Shown here: positions 26,087-46,374 of the stretch, piece after piece
Numbering within the stretch: position 1 is the stretch's first letter
Layout: each line of letters opens with the position of its first letter
DNA from: Nitrososphaeraceae archaeon
GTDB lineage: Archaea; Thermoproteota; Nitrososphaeria; Nitrososphaerales; Nitrososphaeraceae
Direction of reading: 5' to 3'
DNA length: 64,000 nucleotides
NCBI GenBank assembly: GCA_044870765.1
Contig: JBIOZG010000002.1
Location: forward strand, 1-64,000
Made by a program: the position numbers and the translations under genes
Notes under the pieces: model-generated
Told to the model about the DNA's origin: nothing
What the model saw: only the letters and a program-made list of their open reading frames with translations
The model's database searches: none

Positions 26087-27736
26087 TTAATTCTTAGGAG
26101 ATAACAATTCTCTTCTCTTCATTTCTTTTCTCTTCTCAGTATCAAATCTACCAAGTTCATATTGATTCAAATCTACAAATTTCATCCCTTTGGTAAGTAG
26201 TGGATGAATATAATTGATTTTTTTATATATTTGTTGACAAATGTAGCGGTAGTCAGGATGCCCTTGTGCAATTGTACGTAATTCGATCATATGGTAAAGT
26301 TCTCTTAAATTAATTTTCATGAAATATGGATATTTATAAGCAAAATTAACCACATACTGAGCTTCAACAGGTAATGTCTTTGCAATATTTTCATAAGTAT
26401 TCTTACAAAGGGACATGCAGTCTTTGAAATCCTTCTCGAGACCCGAATCAATAATTTCTTCGGGGATGTCATATCCGTGTTTAGTTGAAAGTAATTGTCT
26501 TTCGATAGTGAGAATTCTATGACGATGTAAGTCACGGAACATCCCAAAGTTGGTAAACATTTCAAATAAATATTCGACCATCTCAAACGCTCTGCCCGGT
26601 CTATGTCTCCTATTTTCACGAAATTTTGTATAAGCCGAGATTATTTCATTTATTCTCTCTTGTGGAAAGGATCTAACCAACTTGATTATATCATGAAGTG
26701 ATTGTCCATGTGCATTTTCATACAATATTGCAGAAGCTACTTTTACTTCTGCATCTTTACTATCTACGTAATCAATCAATCTCACATCTGCAGGAGAAAA
26801 GTCAGGTTGAATCTCGCACAGATATTTATCTGTCAATTTTGAAATCTCTATATTCGTATTTTTCATAAATAACTGAAGAGATTTCCCATGTTTTTCATTT
26901 ACACGTTTAATAAAAGATGGTATAACGCAATCAAGCTCAGAATTTACTAAACGGGCCAATTCCTTGAGCTCATTTAATTCAGAACAATACAATTTTGTTA
27001 GGAGATATTCAAATGCCCTACCATTTCCTGTTATACCTAAATTGGTAAGAGTCGCTGCGGGTAACATATTACGTAGAATATCTAGAGTCTTAGATCTAAT
27101 AGTACTATTGTATACCTTCTTGGCGGATTCTATATCCTGCTCATCCGTTAGTTTAGAAAAAGGACTTTCAATTTTTGAAATTGAATCAAAATATACGAAA
27201 TCATCAATGGGTTCTATTTCCGAAATAAATTTCTGCATTACAATGATACTTTTACTATAAACATTGAACGCATAATCACAGGATTCTATATATTGATCTG
27301 CGTATTTTGATCCAAGTATCTTTTCATCCCTATAATATTTATACATGCTACCAACTTTCTGATCAAATGGTATGTACCGAGATGATTTTTCTAAATAGGA
27401 TAACCCAATCCTTTGATCCTCAATCTTTTTAGCTGCAATGTTGGACACCCACTCTATTGCGATTTGTGCTTCTCCTAATTCAGCAACAGAATCATCGCCA
27501 TATTCTGATAGGATTTTGCTATAGAACTCCTTTCCTCTATTCGGATTAGTAATAAACTCGTCCAAAAAAATCTCCCTCATCGTTTTATCTGATCTAGAAT
27601 ATCTCGACATAAGCGCCCCTCTATCGACTTGTCGAGGAGTTGTAATAGCAAATACATGCTTATCTGTATTTGAAAAATGTTGATCAAGTATTGACTTTTC
27701 TTGGTCTGAAAAATCATAAACGGAGTTGAAATTCAT
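26087..27736 (-). CDS. thyX: FAD-dependent thymidylate synthase, tandem-domain type
   Basis: YGDDSVAE, SYLEKSSRY, DLHRHR, NLREL..ELR...GH. Confidence 0.85.
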   Translation of the reverse strand: MNFNSVYDFSDQEKSILDQHFSNTDKHVFAITTPRQVDRGALMSRYSRSDKTMREIFLDEFITNPNRGKEFYSKILSEYGDDSVAELGEAQIAIEWVSNIAAKKIEDQRIGLSYLEKSSRYIPFDQKVGSMYKYYRDEKILGSKYADQYIESCDYAFNVYSKSIIVMQKFISEIEPIDDFVYFDSISKIESPFSKLTDEQDIESAKKVYNSTIRSKTLDILRNMLPAATLTNLGITGNGRAFEYLLTKLYCSELNELKELARLVNSELDCVIPSFIKRVNEKHGKSLQLFMKNTNIEISKLTDKYLCEIQPDFSPADVRLIDYVDSKDAEVKVASAILYENAHGQSLHDIIKLVRSFPQERINEIISAYTKFRENRRHRPGRAFEMVEYLFEMFTNFGMFRDLHRHRILTIERQLLSTKHGYDIPEEIIDSGLEKDFKDCMSLCKNTYENIAKTLPVEAQYVVNFAYKYPYFMKINLRELYHMIELRTIAQGHPDYRYICQQIYKKINYIHPLLTKGMKFVDLNQYELGRFDTEKRKEMKRRELLSPKN

Positions 27737-28662: not shown

Positions 28663-28838
28663 TGACCGCAGTATGAGTTGACGACTCTCAAAACTTTTTA
28701 TTCTCAATATTTATTGAAAATTTTTCAAATTCTTAAGCAAATTCAGAGCATAACAAATTAGGATGATTGAGTCAATGTATTTATGTTATAGATTATTGTG
28801 CCAATACATTAAAATAAATAAGTTTAGTGTATCTTGAT

Positions 28839-29105
28839 ATGAAATACAGAAGTAGAACAGAAATAGTAGCGATGATCCTAGAGGCAGCAAATGGTGGGGC
28901 AACAAAGACCAGAATAATGTACAAAGCTTTTCTTAGCTATGCTCAATTGAGGGAATATCTCTCCGTACTGATTGAAAATAATTTACTAGAATATTTAGAA
29001 GGCTCACAAACATACAAAACAACAGAGAAAGGATTAAACTTCTTGAAAATGCACAATGAAATCGGCGAGCTTCTACAAACTTCAGTAAAAGAATCGAGAA
29101 TATAA
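28839..29105 (+). CDS. Winged-helix transcriptional regulator (HTH_45-like)
   Basis: MKYRSRTEI..ILE, ATKTRIMYKAFLSY, YKTTEKG. Confidence 0.9.
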   Translation: MKYRSRTEIVAMILEAANGGATKTRIMYKAFLSYAQLREYLSVLIENNLLEYLEGSQTYKTTEKGLNFLKMHNEIGELLQTSVKESRI

Positions 29106-29301
29106 AAAACTCATTTTTTCCTTTTAATCTATTTTTTTATTTTTTGACTCTCCCAATAATGTTGTAGTACTCTAATCTACATTCTAGAAGATATCAGGAT
29201 TCACCTACATTAGAAAACAGATCGGGTAAGCATTTCTCAAATATCACTAGTGATATATATCTTAAAATTGTACCTTGACATTACCACTCCCAAATCTTTT
29301 C

Positions 29302-29442
29302 ATGAAATGCGGAATTTGTAAGGAAGAAATAATTAAAGAAAAACGTAGAGAGCATTTAAGGTACCATAAGTTAGATGATACATTAGTAGAATGGATAATA
29401 GAAACAGATGATGATTTGATATCTTCTTACGAAAAACACTAG
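29302..29442 (+). CDS. C2H2-type zinc-finger microprotein, 46 aa (not in ORF track)
   Basis: MKCGICKEEIIKEKRREHLRYHKLDDTLVEWIIETDDDLISSYEKH. Confidence 0.65.
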   Translation: MKCGICKEEIIKEKRREHLRYHKLDDTLVEWIIETDDDLISSYEKH

Positions 29443-29555
29443 ATATTTTCTCATAATATTTTCTCATAATATTGAGTTCAACCTTGCTTTTTGCCGATTT
29501 TCCAGATAATTAGTCAAAAGAAAGAATTAATTTGAACAGATCCAAATATACCACC

Positions 29556-29690
29556 ATGTCAAACAGTCCTCAAGTATCATGTCCTTATTGCGCATCGAAA
29601 TTTAACAATAACGAAGAGTTATCCAAACACATAGATAGAATTCATGGTGATTCTGGGTTATTAGAAGGCGACCGAAGAGGGTGGAAGTAA
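29556..29690 (+). CDS. C2H2 zinc-finger microprotein, 44 aa (not in ORF track)
   Basis: MSNSPQVSCPYCASKFNNNEELSKHIDRIHGDSGLLEGDRRGWK; C-x2-C-x3-F-x5-L-x2-H-x4-H. Confidence 0.8.
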   Translation: MSNSPQVSCPYCASKFNNNEELSKHIDRIHGDSGLLEGDRRGWK

Positions 29691-29993
29691 ACAACAGCCA
29701 GTCTAACATGGATATTCAAAAGTAACTCAAATTCCTTATTTATTTCATAATTTTGATTTCAAAATTCAAATAGGAATATAGATCAATTTATCCCACATTC
29801 TTTAATATGTTGATAGTGAATAACAACGCAATCAAAAATGTCTAAGCGACATTATATTACTATTTTATGATATCATTGAATCAAAATACATTCTTGTTCT
29901 ATTATACTACAAAGAACGGTATGTAATTTGGTATTATGATATACTAATTAAAAGAGTTATATTTCAGAATGGTCTTAATTTAGATAGATAGAA

Positions 29994-30206
29994 ATGAGTT
30001 CCCAACTAATTGGGAGAAAAAACAAGTACCATAAGCATGAGTATTTGAGAAACAGTATAGAGTTGGAATATAAAGAATGCAAGTCATGTAAAATAAGGAC
30101 ACAATTTACCTGCGTTGTTTGTGGGTTTTGCTGGAGCTGTCATTGGAAAGTAGAACAATTGGCTAAAATACCAAAATATTTACTGGAAGATGTAATTAAC
30201 GAATGA
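29994..30206 (+). CDS. Cys-rich small zinc-binding protein
   Basis: CKSC, CVVC, CWSCH in 70 aa. Confidence 0.7.
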   Translation: MSSQLIGRKNKYHKHEYLRNSIELEYKECKSCKIRTQFTCVVCGFCWSCHWKVEQLAKIPKYLLEDVINE

Positions 30207-30295
30207 CAAACAGTATTTTCGAGTAATTTTTTATCGGTCAAACACTTCAATATATAATTGGTTGAGGGACCTAATACGTATTATAAGACTTATGC

Positions 30296-31213
30296 CTATT
30301 TTATAATAGAGAAATGGTCCTTGTCCGAGTTGTCTCTGTTCTCGTAAAAGACGGCATTCAACCTTTTTCCATTTTCCGCTATATCTATATTCAAGAACCC
30401 ATGTCTCAGAAATTGAGTAATAACATAAGGAGCCTGGCCTGTAATTTCATACAAATCTTCTCCGCCGGTTCCTATAGTGACAAATATGGGCCCTTTGGGG
30501 TCATTCTCGTATTTCTCGGTGTTTCTATCTGTTATTATGGGAGTAAAAGTTTTAGTCTCATTGTAGTTTAGAGGATATGTCCTTTGATAATTATGATTAT
30601 GGGCCTGTAGTACAACATCAACGCCATATTTATCAAACAGAGGATGATAAAGATCCTGCAATTCATCAAGCCCCGGATGCGTCGTATTAGATGAATAGAA
30701 TGATCTAAATGAATATACTATTATCCAATTAACACTCTTATTATCATGCGCTTTCTTGAGATCATCTTTAACAAACTTATATTGTTCTGAAGTTTCATTG
30801 TATGGTATAACCCTATTTTTGGCTGTTGCCATTGAAAGGAAATGAACATTTCCATAATCAAATGAATAAAATGGACTATCCATATTGAAATGTTTCATAT
30901 ATTCAGTAAATTTGGCAGGAAACATCTCATTATCTCCAATCGCAATTTTTAATCTTCCATCAGTATCTAATGGAGAAACAACATGAAACCAACAATCTGC
31001 GGTTTTCTGATACGATAGGTCTCCTAACCCTATGACCACTTCTGGTTGCCTGAGTAACATATTGGTTATTGTTCTATTCGCATTCTTACCACAACCAAAG
31101 TCTCCTGCAGCTACAAAATTAAATTCAGAATTATTTGCTTGAGCCGTTCCGAATGCATAATTTACAAAGATTGTGAGGGTGCTGATGGAGAAAAACACCA
31201 TCATAAATAACAC
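30296..31213 (-). CDS. Secreted metallophosphoesterase (purple acid phosphatase-like)
   Basis: Signal peptide; AAGD, GLGDLSY, GDNE (variant of GNHE), AHNHNYQR. Confidence 0.85.
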   Translation of the reverse strand: MLFMMVFFSISTLTIFVNYAFGTAQANNSEFNFVAAGDFGCGKNANRTITNMLLRQPEVVIGLGDLSYQKTADCWFHVVSPLDTDGRLKIAIGDNEMFPAKFTEYMKHFNMDSPFYSFDYGNVHFLSMATAKNRVIPYNETSEQYKFVKDDLKKAHDNKSVNWIIVYSFRSFYSSNTTHPGLDELQDLYHPLFDKYGVDVVLQAHNHNYQRTYPLNYNETKTFTPIITDRNTEKYENDPKGPIFVTIGTGGEDLYEITGQAPYVITQFLRHGFLNIDIAENGKRLNAVFYENRDNSDKDHFSIIK

Positions 31214-31635: not shown

Positions 31636-31682
31636 GCGACGGGAGTGGGACTCGAACCCTTCTATTATGCTCTCGGAGTCAT
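31636..31682 (-). repeat. att-like copy of tRNA-Ser 3' end plus shared arm (copy A)
   Basis: GCGACGGGAGTGGGACTCGAACCC matches 35177-35200 at 23/24, followed by TTCTATTATGCTCTCGGAGTCAT. Confidence 0.85.
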
Positions 31683-31768
31683 AGTATTTTAATAAATGAA
31701 TACTTGCCATCACACGTCAGCCGTATTATAGGCGAAAATATCAAAAAAATTGTAAAGAGGATAGTTAG

Positions 31769-32011
31769 TTACTTTGTTCCTATCGCTTCTTTAATTTTTT
31801 CGCTGATGTTACCTAATATTCCACCTATTTTTTGACCCGCTTCACCAGTCTTATTCGTAATATTTCCTGCAGTCTCATTTGCACTTGCACTGGCATTTCC
31901 CATGGCGTTTGAAGCGTTAGTCGTCACATTTTGAGCATTAGCCACTGACACAGTAATCAGTGCAAATGCCAACACAAGCGTCACACTTCCAAAATACAAT
32001 GTTTTTTTCAT
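31769..32011 (-). CDS. Small secreted protein rich in N-glycosylation sequons
   Basis: Signal peptide ending ANA; NVT, NAS, NAS, NET, NIT, NKT, NIS. Confidence 0.75.
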   Translation of the reverse strand: MKKTLYFGSVTLVLAFALITVSVANAQNVTTNASNAMGNASASANETAGNITNKTGEAGQKIGGILGNISEKIKEAIGTK

Positions 32012-32510
32012 TATACACTGATTGGCAACGCTGCTTTAATAGTGTATAGCCTGACTTTGTTAAACTTGCACCCTTAAGTCGTACTCGAGGTCACGGAACA
32101 TTATACAATTTTGAAATTCTTATTCTGATAAAACCCCAAGGGTACCTAATGGGGTCGAATCCACTCCATGCTTATTTATTAGAAATTAGCGATTGATTAA
32201 ATAGACAATATTTAAGTTTATAGAGCAAGCAGGTTATATTCTTGTTACCGCAGGACTACTCTAAACAGAAGTACGTACCAAAAAATAAGTTTTAGTAACG
32301 TTGTTAATTCATGTGCTCTTGTTTTAAACCATATACCACCATATCAGAACACAATAATATTCTTTTTTCTGAATTTTTTGGAGTAAGAAATAGAAAAAGA
32401 CAATGTTTGCTCAGTCCTAACATGAGTAACATATTATAACCATGTGATTCTATAGATTCATCCAGAGATATAAATTTGGGAGGATATAAATCTCATATTA
32501 GTAACTTGAA

Positions 32511-33209
32511 TTGAATCAAATCTCATCATATGCTGAGACTTTTAGGTTGTATAAAGGAATATCAGAGCAATATAACGACCAGGTAATTTTGGATTCTGTC
32601 AAAAAATTAGTACCAGATAAGATACTAAAATTAACCGCCGACGAGCAATCTTTGGAGCCACTCTTAGATTGGTTCAAAAATAATTTTATGAGGTGGATGC
32701 CAAAAGAACTACAATGTCCAAGATGTAATAGACCAATGAGGGTTCAACTTGCAGATGACAATTCAGGAACATTTCGAAAAACAGAAATTCACATGTGTGA
32801 CGTATGTAGTTCAACCCAAATATTTCCACGATATGACAAAATACTGAGGATTGCAGAAACAAGAATCGGTAGGTGTAGTGAATGGTCAATACTCTTTGGT
32901 GCTATTGTAAATTCGTTATTAATTCAAACTAGAATAGTACACGATTATCTTGACCATTGCTGGAACGAATCTTTGATAAATAAAAAATGGGTACATATTG
33001 ACTCAACTTTAGACTATCCTATTTCTTTTGACCATCCTTACTATTATGAGCAAAATTGGGGAAAGAAGTATGAGTATGTATTAGCATTCTCCGCTAATAA
33101 TTTAGAGGACGTTACTACACATTATACTCAACAGTGGCTTATGGTTCAGAAAAGAAGAGGAAAGAAAGATAAAATAGAAGAATTCAAAGAGATTTATTAC
33201 AGAGCATAA
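32511..33209 (+). CDS. Peptide:N-glycanase (Png1/NGLY1)-like transglutaminase-fold protein
   Basis: LLDWFKNNFMRW, CPRC..CDVC, FPRY, TRIGRCSEW, DHCWNE, WVHID, YEQNWGKK, AFS, DVT. Confidence 0.85.
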   Translation: MNQISSYAETFRLYKGISEQYNDQVILDSVKKLVPDKILKLTADEQSLEPLLDWFKNNFMRWMPKELQCPRCNRPMRVQLADDNSGTFRKTEIHMCDVCSSTQIFPRYDKILRIAETRIGRCSEWSILFGAIVNSLLIQTRIVHDYLDHCWNESLINKKWVHIDSTLDYPISFDHPYYYEQNWGKKYEYVLAFSANNLEDVTTHYTQQWLMVQKRRGKKDKIEEFKEIYYRA

Positions 33210-33312
33210 ATCTGCGAAATCATCAATGTGCAAGCCAGCTCAGTCTGTAACCTTAATTATCATTTCTTTAAACAGTCATTAACTTTTCTTGAATCTTAAA
33301 GATTTATACTGT

Positions 33313-33344
33313 GAGTGGGACTCGAATCCTTCCATTATGGTCTC
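33313..33344 (-). repeat. att-like copy of tRNA-Ser 3' end plus shared arm (copy B)
   Basis: GAGTGGGACTCGAATCCTTCCATTATGGTCTC, 29/32 identical to copy A. Confidence 0.8.
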
Positions 33345-33392
33345 AAAACCTCTTAGACAATACTTATTTCATATGTCTTCATTTCTGAGTAT

Positions 33393-34991
33393 ATGTCCAA
33401 GGTTGTCAGACAAATAAAAGAAGAGGCAGGTCAAAATTTTCCTAAAGATACAAAACGAGCAGTGATATTTCAGGGAGGTGGAGCCATAGGAGCATATGCA
33501 GCCGGAGTGTATGCGGCTCTTTATTATTGGATGAAGAAGGATATTACAGATGCCGAAAATGTCTTTGATATAGTTGCAGGAGCTTCTGCGGGTGCCATTA
33601 ACGCTTCAATTATTGTTGGCCATGTAATGGCCAGTAAGAGTAAAAAAGTTCAGCGATGGGAAGGTTCAGTAAATAAGCTTCTAGACTTTTGGAGTTTTAT
33701 CTCTTCATCGCCCAATTTCACCAAATGGAAACCATTTTTCAGTTACTTTTGGCCTTTTTTTGGAAACGAGAAGTACTGGATTACAGTTTGGGACAACGCA
33801 AATTTTGGAAATGTTGCATCAGGTGAAGCCGCAAGGAGATATTACTCATCTAAAGAATACCTTTACAGTGGGGCACCCAACGTCTTTTCATATCAAACAA
33901 ATGAAATTGACGACAGGTTTTTCGACAATATTTGGCCAGTTACGAATGATTGGTATCGATATGACAATAACGCACTGAAAGAAAGTATTCAAGGATACGC
34001 CGATTTTCCTATAAAAACAAGTCCAGATGCAGGTGACCCAAGATTACTAATAGTAACTGTAGACGTTGAAGAAGGAGAGCAAGTAACCTTCGACAGTCAT
34101 TCGGATAATGTGGGATTTGGGTATACTGAGAAGGGTGAAAAAAAATATTCTATAGAATATAGAAAAGGTCTGATGGTAGAACATATAATGGCCAGCTCTT
34201 CGGTTCCAGTACATTACGATTATGCGTTAGTACCAGTGAAGTATGATTATACCAAACTTGGAGAATCAGAACCAAAATCAAAAAACATTGATTTCCATAA
34301 TGGAAAGTACCGAAGATTTTGGGATGGTGGTATATTGAGTAATACTCCCCTAAGAGAAGTCATTCAGGCGCACCAGGATTTGAAGGAAGGCAATATTCCG
34401 CCACCATCCTTGAAAGTGTATATTGTAGACGTTTGGCCTTCTGTGAAACATTATCCAATTGCATCAGACCATGATGGAGTAATAAATAGAAAGAACGACT
34501 TGATATATCAGGATAAAACATTTTATGAGGAAAAAGTAACTCATCTTATATCGGACTATAAGAGCTTGGTCGAAGAATTTCGCAAATTAGCAGAAAAAAA
34601 TAATCTTCAAACTCAAATTAATGACATTCTTATTATGAGTGCCCCCAGAAGTAGAAAAAGAGATGGGTCGACTAGAACCTATGGGGAATTAATCGAAACT
34701 GTATTTGATATCGATATAACAAGAATTGAAAGAACTCCTAACGAGAATGAAATCTCCTTTAAATGGTGTGATTACTCTGTACAAACTATTGACAATCTAA
34801 TAAATCAAGGAATCAAAGATACCCTGAATGTGATGATTGAGGAATCCTTACAGAGAAATAATCAAGAGAAATCAATGGCAAAGAAGGAAATACGCGCATT
34901 TATAAATTCAGTAGAGGACGAGAAACAAATACAACAATTGGATAAACGATATGCGATATTACTAATTGATGAAGCTGATGCTATATTGTGA
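33393..34991 (+). CDS. Patatin-like phospholipase
   Basis: FQGGGAIG, GASAG, ASSSVP, WDGGILSNTP. Confidence 0.92.
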   Translation: MSKVVRQIKEEAGQNFPKDTKRAVIFQGGGAIGAYAAGVYAALYYWMKKDITDAENVFDIVAGASAGAINASIIVGHVMASKSKKVQRWEGSVNKLLDFWSFISSSPNFTKWKPFFSYFWPFFGNEKYWITVWDNANFGNVASGEAARRYYSSKEYLYSGAPNVFSYQTNEIDDRFFDNIWPVTNDWYRYDNNALKESIQGYADFPIKTSPDAGDPRLLIVTVDVEEGEQVTFDSHSDNVGFGYTEKGEKKYSIEYRKGLMVEHIMASSSVPVHYDYALVPVKYDYTKLGESEPKSKNIDFHNGKYRRFWDGGILSNTPLREVIQAHQDLKEGNIPPPSLKVYIVDVWPSVKHYPIASDHDGVINRKNDLIYQDKTFYEEKVTHLISDYKSLVEEFRKLAEKNNLQTQINDILIMSAPRSRKRDGSTRTYGELIETVFDIDITRIERTPNENEISFKWCDYSVQTIDNLINQGIKDTLNVMIEESLQRNNQEKSMAKKEIRAFINSVEDEKQIQQLDKRYAILLIDEADAIL

Positions 34992-35043
34992 TTTGCGAGG
35001 GATTTACATTGCAGATTCAATCATAAAACGCGAAAGTGGCAAA

Positions 35044-35079
35044 GGGACTCGAACCCCTATATCATGCTCTTGTAATCAT
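35044..35079 (-). repeat. att-like copy of tRNA-Ser T-arm plus shared arm (copy C)
   Basis: GGGACTCGAACCCCTATATCATGCTCTTGTAATCAT aligns ungapped to copy A GGGACTCGAACCCTTCTATTATGCTCTCGGAGTCAT. Confidence 0.75.
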
Positions 35080-35177
35080 TACCCTTTAAGAGTTGATAAC
35101 ATAAAATAGCTTTCCTCTTGAGAAAGAAATAGAGCGCTATGCATCTATAAGGCTTCTGCCAGAACAGGAGACTATAG

Positions 35178-35306
35178 CGCCGGGAGTGGGACTCGAACCC
35201 ACGAGTTCTTGCGAACATCAGCTTGCGCATCGGTTTTGGTAATTTTGATCTCGAGGCTGACCCCTTTTAGGGAATCATATATCTTACCTAGCTTGGGTAC
35301 CCCGGC
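35178..35306 (-). tRNA. tRNA-Ser(CGA) with two introns (D-loop about 35266-35284; canonical 37/38 about 35224-35249)
   Basis: Spliced: GCCGGGG TA CCCAAGCTAGGTAAGGG G TCAGC CT CGA GA GCTGA, long variable arm, GTGGG TTCGAGT CCCAC TCCCGGC G; 84 nt. Confidence 0.88.
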
Positions 35307-46007: not shown

Positions 46008-46136
46008 TCGATATAGTGTTGTTGTCTTGTCGTGGTATTTAATTTAATTTATTGTATTTCAATTCATGAATGCGAATTTGCTAAGACTCTGATATTACCA
46101 AATCAAATTACCAAAATAATTTAGAAAGTATCGGTA

Positions 46137-46211
46137 TGGAGGGGATGGGATTTGAACCCATGACCACCTGCGTGTAAGGCAGGTATCATAACCAGTCTAG
46201 ACCACCCCTCC
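46137..46211 (-). tRNA. tRNA-Val(TAC)
   Basis: GGAGGGG TG GTCTAGACTGGTTATGAT A CCTGC CT TAC AC GCAGG TGGTC ATGGG TTCAAAT CCCAT CCCCTCC A. Confidence 0.95.
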
Positions 46212-46374
46212 ATAACTTGAATTCTGGTTAAACAAAGTATATTATTTAGGGGCTATTTGAATTAATCAAAACAAATTGTCAGAACAACTAACTTCACATG
46301 TTTCTAAATAAAGTATTTTTAATTCCCTCTTTGTATTCAAACTTTTATAAAACTGCAATACTAATTTACTAATT

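Follow-up and report, generated by a model that had tools for sequence, protein, structure and literature searches.

We analyzed a 64,000-nucleotide stretch of DNA of a Nitrososphaeraceae archaeon (contig JBIOZG010000002.1, positions 1 to 64,000; hereafter the window), in which copies of the 3′ end of a tRNA-Ser(CGA) gene recur beside that gene and delimit a tandem array of short gene modules at 31636-35176. The recurrence of these copies was confirmed. We consider the array to be, with fair probability, an accretion island anchored at tRNA-Ser, which would have been built and moved by small integrase elements and would now be orphaned. As the genome encodes archaeal AmoA, CdvA and Gins51 are encoded near the locus, and the DNA is present in soil and rhizosphere metagenomes, the host is a soil ammonia-oxidizing archaeon.

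Array of modules at the tRNA-Ser(CGA) locus

The tRNA gene was recognized by the Rfam tRNA model with 30.7 bits against a gathering score of 29, and its sequence is kept in 18 relatives. It carries two insertions or introns, of 25 nt in the D-arm region and of 30 nt in the anticodon loop; ARAGORN missed it, as did Rfam gathering-score scans of larger inputs. We read its identity as Ser(CGA) from the long variable arm and the loop C-U-CGA. As an earlier note on this DNA had described, the 3′ end of the gene recurs in the same orientation three times, at 31636, 33305, and 35032. The 13-nt T-loop string GGGACTCGAAYCC, with at most one mismatch, has four copies in the window, all on the plus strand (31647, 33317, 35044, and 35188, the last within the tRNA), compared to 0.02 expected, and none of 100 shuffles had four. 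A repeat search returned one four-copy family of 32 nt with spacings of 1670, 1727, and 144 nt; identities to the first copy were 91%, 78%, and 63%, the last being the tRNA, which has only the core in common with it. The three internal copies also have the common non-tRNA tail that the note had seen, namely an arm of ~25 nt following the core. Core plus tail (CGAAYCC-YTNYATYATGSTCT) was found in three places only on both strands of the whole 2.0-Mb assembly, all of them here. The hidden Markov model (HMM) of the site with which the window was scanned was partly trained on these copies, and their scores follow by construction. The features of the array and its borders are as follows.

35178-35306, minus strand: tRNA-Ser(CGA) with two insertions or introns (Rfam)
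35177-35200, as read on the plus strand: attB, or core, the 3′ 24 nt of tRNA-Ser(CGA)
31636-31683, plus strand: site 1, core (acceptor part 10 of 11 positions, T-loop part 13 of 13), then the class-1 arm TTCTATTATGCTCTCGGAGTCAT
31684-32124, minus strand: body of a small secreted-protein cassette, inverted in the array (ORF 31769-32011, 80 aa)
32125-32175, minus strand: inverted class-2 site, degenerate core and then the arm ATTAGGTACCCTTGGGGTTTTAT
32176-33304, plus strand: transglutaminase/PNGase-like module (ORF 32511-33209, Pfam Transglut_core/Rad4)
33305-33342, plus strand: site 2, core with the class-1 arm shortened by a 117-bp deletion
33343-35031, plus strand: patatin-like phospholipase module (ORF 33393-34991, Pfam)
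35032-35082, plus strand: site 3, acceptor half degenerate, T-loop half exact, class-1 arm
35083-35176: gene-less remnant of ~95 bp up to the tRNA, with sequence matches in G012, G020, G016, and L137
31565-31635: displaced original downstream flank of the tRNA, now the far end of the array (alignments of relatives)
30296-31213, minus strand: metallophosphoesterase, the left flanking core gene, outside the array (Pfam; syntenic in relatives)

Direct repeats of the tRNA 3′ end thus bound the inserted DNA, and the tRNA itself is intact. Read toward the tRNA, site 1 is followed by the 80-aa gene on the minus strand, the inverted class-2 site, the transglutaminase-like gene, site 2, the patatin gene, site 3, and the remnant, the last interval of the array measuring 140 bp. 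The Pfam scan agreed with the gene content given in the earlier note (the 80-aa ORF plus the Transglut_core/Rad4 gene in one interval, patatin in the other); the 80-aa ORF had no family match. The weak copy that the note had suspected near 32151 proved to be a genuine site, although its orientation was mistaken: it is on the minus strand, and its arm belongs to a second class, related to the first. This site sits within a 245-bp stretch that is absent from the relatives G010 and G022, and its arm is also present in G020, G006:C74, and G002:C99. Similarly, only two copies end in ...TCAT, as stated, and the second one is without it because of the 117-bp deletion in the window; six metagenome contigs retain the full arm of site 2, and the longer form is found in one contig of run X20. 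In agreement with the note, no ORF in the array matched an integrase by Pfam or by tblastn of the G020 integrase (described below) against the contig, C2.

The site family across the genus

A search for the core and arm in the genome and its relatives, as the earlier note had advised, yielded a site family across the genus in addition to the three places in this assembly. The alignment of 27 sites extends over 51 nt; its most strongly conserved part begins ~5 nt ahead of the T-loop string and reaches as far as the arm does. In internal copies the outer acceptor part of the core is degenerate, while the arm and the T-loop half are better kept. Two arm classes were distinguished, TTCTATCATGGTCGTGGAGTCATA and ATTAGGTAYACTTGGGGKTTCATA, each with a final string similar to the core's T-loop part. 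The class-1 pattern gave 17 matches in 12 of 40 genus genomes and the reversed control pattern gave none. The sequence-only model gave 164 matches in 36 of the 40; the arm was reached by 129 of the 150 matches listed, 27 of these 129 being training sequences. Beyond the genus, the site model matched in two other genera of the same family, and at E ≤ 1e-5 the site was not found in the 120 genomes sampled from 19 other families.

Adjacent sites at most 10 kb apart were on the same strand in 25 of 28 pairs, and the three exceptions all involve one homologous inverted module in the present genome (G000) and G012; the related genomes are not independent, and no probability was assigned to these counts. 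The 31 intervals between two sites, or between a site and a tRNA end, measured 0.14-9.6 kb. An integrase homolog was found in one of them only, in G020 (tblastn, E ≤ 1e-5), the other 30 being integrase-free, and at 0.2-1.4 kb many intervals are too short for an integrase gene. The cargo is metabolic or accessory (SDR, PfkB, CBS, ferritin, hydrolases, SnoaL, HbpS-like, M48 peptidase, MFS, and P450), its genes are in mixed orientation, and no replication, capsid, or transfer genes were found among the array cargo scanned. At eight array loci no tRNA was detected; however, the same scans miss the intron-bearing tRNA-Ser, which went unreported in L013/L014 and L136-L138, so that these arrays may still have a tRNA anchor.

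A third arm class, TGCATRTATACGGTTCT..., was also observed after a tRNA-Ser-like core at G000:C10:3500 (minus strand) and at 6569 of L044 (plus strand), and in G021:C207 its position is immediately after a 3′ fragment of a patatin gene, at a distance of 1.1 kb from tRNA-Pro(CGG). Sites of the tRNA-Ser type lie 0.4 kb from tRNA-Met in two genomes (L115 8099-8863; L049 6053-6540). The T-loop string of tRNA-Met is nearly that of the core, which suggests secondary targets. A putative core at G000:C29:7932 was rejected as an att site, being a real 87-nt tRNA.

Tyrosine integrases adjoining tRNA-Ser

The earlier note had also called for full-length integrases, and a cognate tyrosine integrase was found in relatives, adjoining tRNA-Ser. 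In the unpublished genome G020, whose flanks are 96% identical to those of the window, the tRNA-Ser(CGA) locus holds other genes, a 428-aa tyrosine recombinase adjoining the tRNA, and, at the opposite end, a class-1 site. The enzyme matched Phage_integrase (1.6e-7) and has an N-terminal SAM-like domain and a C-terminal zinc ribbon. With one SCO4226-like gene it makes up a 1.8-kb element, the one complete small element seen. Family members occur in 24 of the 40 genus genomes. Enzymes 52-63% identical to that of G020 lie directly after tRNA-Ser and read away from it in G054:C106, G050:C146, G051:C128, and G043:C145, the contigs of G054, G050, and G051 ending before any distal site. Whole elements were seen in two published genomes: tRNA-Ser(GCU), an integrase, four cargo ORFs, and a site together span 6.3 kb in G001:C5, and 8.7 kb with integrase fragments separate the site from tRNA-Ser in G050:C72. 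In G050:C126 the integrase abuts an internal site, which is the layout expected after displacement by a later insertion. Integrase fragments were found within or beside the arrays of G001:C5, G050:C72, G050:C126, and G018:C30, and an integrase at the tRNA end faces inward in G020, L106-L108, L152, and L155. Apart from tRNA-Ser, an integrase of the same family (L156 1734-3308, G018:C57) was observed right after tRNA-Val; the window has a tRNA-Val at 46136-46212.

Between the integrase start and the core, ~29 nt are conserved at nine junctions, from which a weight matrix of this integrase-side arm was built. The window's own junctions matched it with p = 0.008 and p = 0.022 (uncorrected). That every module keeps the integrase-side arm, and with it a full attP once circular, was dropped as a general claim; the arm is absent at most right ends, which means that the modules do not constitute complete mini-elements. 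At one junction only were the two arms related as inverted repeats, and this idea was likewise set aside.

The present genome gave three Phage_integrase matches, of which one only resembles the G020 enzyme (C29:1699-3135, also L034 1699-3135). This gene lies between hypothetical and M24 peptidase genes and encodes a 478-aa protein with a long charged C-terminal extension; it is intact and has kept all conserved catalytic motifs.

The same locus in relatives

The locus was compared in 18 genus members. Six of them have empty sites, with flanks at most 112 bp apart (G005, G021, G017, G019, G002, and G011); here the alignment of the left flank stops at ~31564 and the tRNA follows within the same distance. 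In G016 (95% identical) the locus measures 451 bp, without a site. The 1.4-1.6 kb of G015, G023, and G024 contain two small secreted-protein genes, and G008 has ~1.8 kb with one. The first interval alone is present in G010 and G022, whereas G012 has both intervals and further modules, across two contigs. In G014 the transglutaminase gene is followed by the last 132 bp of the patatin module and then by the tRNA, and a single flank is visible in G013 and G007. G020 carries the integrase-bearing arrangement described above. The comparison between strains that the note had proposed therefore revealed widely differing content, and its objection that all relatives might have the same genes here fails.

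Even the close relatives G000, G012, G016, and G020 (95-96% identical) differ in cassette content and have the tRNA-proximal remnant in common. The first ~45 nt of this remnant match the start of a Rieske-gene module in G012; its last ~40 nt (35140-35176) match the arm that separates integrase start and tRNA in the unpublished genome G020, and also the tRNA-proximal sequence of G012, G016, and L137. Ordinary deletions that are not site-specific are frequent at the locus (G016, G014, L137, and the 245-bp and 117-bp indels), and in G010 the orthologous site has decayed in place, with 2 nt lost. The 80-aa secreted-protein gene and the class-2 site form one module, which lies in direct order beside tRNA-Ser(GCU) in G021:C49 and recurs in G006:C74, G002:C31 (near tRNA-Met), and G012.

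In several relatives the tRNA-Ser(CGA) locus is filled by paralogous small secreted proteins, often as a tandem pair. They consist of a signal peptide followed by a stretch rich in N, S, T, and A and measure ~75-146 aa. No att site was detected beside those in the following contigs.

L025, 1812-2777: secreted paralogues
L026, 2151-2941: secreted paralogues
L027, 1763-2735: secreted paralogues
L029, 454-744: secreted paralogues
L014 (oriented), 2-841: secreted paralogues

Probable movement of the block between lineages

Contigs of two metagenomes (L137/L138) were 74-85% identical to the window in the flanks, compared to 91-99% in the stretch that begins with site 1 and closes with the patatin module; overall, such distant relatives have flanks of about 80% identity and the array at about 94-95%. 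In the base-level alignment with L138, the 70 nt of the original tRNA-downstream flank could not be aligned, and identity was ~95% from the core onward; the switch to high identity falls exactly at the outer core. Similarly, the transglutaminase module was 93-94% identical in G010, G022, and G014, compared to 78-80% in their flanks. These identities suggest that an integrase-less block bounded by core and tRNA was exchanged between lineages. The right end of the patatin module (...gcagattcaatcataa) abuts the core, after which five different continuations were found in different genomes, a pattern that fits later insertions at the tRNA. Metagenome contigs also diverge from the window at 35176/35188 and 31641, and a weak joint from 34994 to 35176 has one side of 21 letters; these are hints only.

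Outside the array, the window has few ORFs at 28700-30296, where identity to L138 is variable and falls to 54-63% around 29700-29900. Farther out, an ORF of 549 aa at 26087-27736 contains a ThyX (Thy1) domain, with residues 319-512 as the best-matched stretch and a second stretch matched as well; an over-called start or an additional domain may account for its long N-terminal part.

Origin of the array

The earlier note had proposed repeated site-specific insertion at the tRNA-Ser 3′ end, giving modules of one or two genes without an integrase and with a common attP-derived arm, and this part of its proposal was upheld. We infer the action of the integrase on these sites, the route, and the order of events as follows. 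Small elements with a zinc-ribbon tyrosine integrase would insert into the 3′ 24 nt of tRNA-Ser, the tRNA being rebuilt each time, and each new insertion would displace the older ones outward. A hybrid site, made of the tRNA-derived core and the conserved ~25-nt element arm, would be left at the outer end of each insertion. The modules retained in the window would be cargo only, namely the secreted protein, the transglutaminase-like protein, and the patatin. The tRNA-adjacent element would provide the arm-core junction, which any outer core and arm could partner, such that a composite of the integrase element and older modules could excise and integrate elsewhere (cis-mobilization). The whole block from site 1 to the tRNA may have been exchanged between lineages through the outermost core and the tRNA. 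Finally, the integrase element would have been lost by ordinary deletion, leaving the arm remnant at 35140-35175 beside the tRNA; the array in this genome looks orphaned. Most likely the array travelled with a tRNA-adjacent integrase element. We favor this cis route because array-bearing genomes have the tRNA-proximal arm remnant and other arrays contain integrase fragments, and because most module ends have no integrase-side arm and because of where the boundaries of the transferred block fall.

Several findings weigh against this account. No integrase lies in the window, and the sole homolog of the G020 integrase in the 96.65%-complete assembly is that on C29, which is 44% identical and does not adjoin tRNA-Ser. 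The integrase-side arm is strongly matched at only two of 27 module right-end junctions, and an integrase at this exact locus is known from one unpublished genome only, G020. No excision product was seen in the sequencing runs, all of which consisted of contigs. Block-wise identity was derived from draft genomes and contigs of metagenomes, in which repeats can give rise to chimeras. Furthermore, no site was found upstream of the patatin gene in L140, L141/L142, and L143, which present three different upstream contexts.

Accretion and en-bloc movement fit the data better than independent movement of each cassette by a recombinase supplied in trans, as the earlier note had it. In its full form, this alternative would be a true integron-like system, that is, a second, independently evolved cassette system in the soil ammonia-oxidizing archaea of this family, in which the ~50-nt site of core and arm would serve as the cassette recombination site in the manner of attC, tRNA genes would be the docking points, and a zinc-ribbon integrase encoded elsewhere, in the chromosome or on an element, would cut out single cassettes of one or two genes, put them back at the tRNA core or at an internal core, and in this way reorder them and spread them among arrays. 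Integrase-free intervals are the rule (30/31), and the arm and T-loop half are better kept than the acceptor half of the core. The 80-aa module was found in either orientation, at tRNA-Ser(CGA) as well as at tRNA-Ser(GCU) and near tRNA-Met; the four closest genomes differ in cassettes and yet have a common tRNA-proximal remnant; and the present genome retains an intact integrase of the family. Nevertheless, in no case did a single cassette end at cores on both sides in two independent arrays, orthologous sites undergo decay where they stand, as in G010, and many strain differences are deletions that are not site-specific. The sites also have no attC-like fold, gene orientation is mixed, and the integrase is not IntI-like. 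We therefore regard this system as unlikely. If it were true, it would do the work of an integron with ordinary double-strand att sites.

Loss of integrases would also be at the center of plain decay, by which each module would be the leftover of a separate autonomous element minus its integrase, no integrase-less DNA would ever have moved, and the high identity would result from homologous recombination of the locus. Such loss is directly seen in the remnant at 35083-35176 and in the fragments of other arrays, illegitimate deletions are frequent, and integrase loss after integration has been reported in archaea in the part of PMC8371274 available to us. However, 30 of 31 intervals have no trace of an integrase, and many are too short to have held its gene. 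Moreover, the high-identity block ends at the 24-nt core beside unalignable DNA, so that homologous recombination would have no homology arm on that side; we think it improbable that plain decay explains the array, a little more so than the shuffling of single cassettes. Chance similarity, tRNA debris, or a meaningless local duplication has a negligible probability. T-arm-like strings are common in any genome, and 10 of 14 matches lie outside the locus, most of them continuing as tRNA. Nevertheless, four copies stand against the 0.02 expected, and the arm is common to more than 100 sites in other genomes, with no control matches. The repeat search found no other notable repeat common to the array intervals, and a simple local duplication, which the earlier note had kept in view as an origin, is therefore excluded.

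Significance

To our knowledge, soil ammonia oxidizers are hard to grow and there are no genetic tools for them. The array shows how these archaea swap small gene sets, and it gives a defined site of ~50 nt together with a likely integrase family. It is evidence that small blocks of accessory genes pass between lineages ~20% apart in sequence. Core and arm are a simple marker for flexible genes in these genomes, and one could try out the integrase with its site for use as an integration tool.

Comparison with known systems

The array had been likened to an integron, and integrons have been reported in Archaea, according to the part of the preprint available to us (bioRxiv 10.1101/2022.02.06.479319). 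The likeness is that short cargo cassettes, free of mobility genes and each with a conserved recombination site, form directional arrays. In contrast to integrons, the sites here are tRNA-derived, gene orientation is mixed, and the integrase is not of the IntI type: the NCBIfam scan of the C29 and G020 integrases gave weak matches to XerA/XerC/XerD only (36-40 bits against cut-offs of 220-335) and none to an integron-specific model. No integrase/attI/promoter platform is present in the window. An attC-like folding was rejected, as DNA folds of three sites on both strands gave z-scores of −0.62 to +0.41 and the 27-site consensus fold was a 3-bp T-stem only, with no covariation. The resemblance to an integron therefore holds only by analogy.

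Among archaeal systems, 'suicidal' integrases of the SSV type (She et al. 2001/2004, via PMC8371274, as far as that text was available) trap foreign genes at tRNA genes. In that system the integrase splits into two flanking halves, whereas no halves flank the modules here; split integration was rejected, since tblastn with the G020 integrase found nothing in contig C2. The features of a tRNA-targeting element with a non-split tyrosine integrase are present as direct repeats, an intact tRNA, and an empty target in six of 18 relatives; an integrase inside the element is absent from 31636-35176 and present in the relatives G020, G001:C5, and G050:C72. Thaumarchaeal tyrosine-integrase elements in tRNA 3′ ends, including intron-bearing ones, have been described (Krupovic et al. 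2019, PMC6563490). An integrase is part of their definition, their length is 2.6-98 kb (median 17 kb), and tandem integration was noted; the accessible portion of that paper, to which these statements refer, does not describe integrase-less modules of one or two genes with a conserved arm. No description of such arrays in ammonia-oxidizing archaea was found in the open-access literature, supplements excluded.

The closest parallels are the tycheposon islands of Prochlorococcus, which match best as far as their accessible description goes, and then accretion by ICEs (integrative and conjugative elements) and cis-mobilizable elements (CIMEs). In streptococci, CIMEs are modules that have neither integrase nor transfer genes; they are flanked by att sites belonging to an element with an integrase, are arranged in tandem with that element, and can excise together with it as one composite. 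Modules that lack both kinds of genes but carry att sequences of an integrase-bearing element were found here as well. The tandem with an integrase element is present in G020, G050:C126, and G001:C5, and only a 40-nt arm remnant of it is left in the window. Unlike CIMEs, the arrays have no conjugation genes and keep one arm only per module, and co-excision is putative here, with the block-wise break in identity at the core as indirect support for composite excision and transfer.

Tycheposons are tyrosine-integrase elements at tRNA 3′ ends that drive the tRNA islands of Prochlorococcus, as described in the part of the preprint accessible to us (Hackl et al., bioRxiv 10.1101/2020.12.28.424599), on which the following likenesses rest. 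In both systems insertion occurs at particular tRNA 3′ ends, elements already present are driven into the island by later ones, integrase fragments and partial tRNAs are found throughout the island, and the integrase lies at the tRNA end and faces inward. Adaptive genes make up the cargo, and small gene cassettes distinguish the strains. The present arrays differ in their archaeal host, in the ~25-nt element arm conserved beside each partial tRNA, and in their intervals, which are mostly of 0.2-5 kb with one to five genes. The replication and mobility genes that are the common hallmark of tycheposons were not found, and the 1.8-kb element of G020 consists of an integrase and one gene, with no replication module. 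Nevertheless, the parallel with Prochlorococcus suggests that tRNA-anchored accretion may be a general route by which streamlined environmental microbes trade small gene sets.

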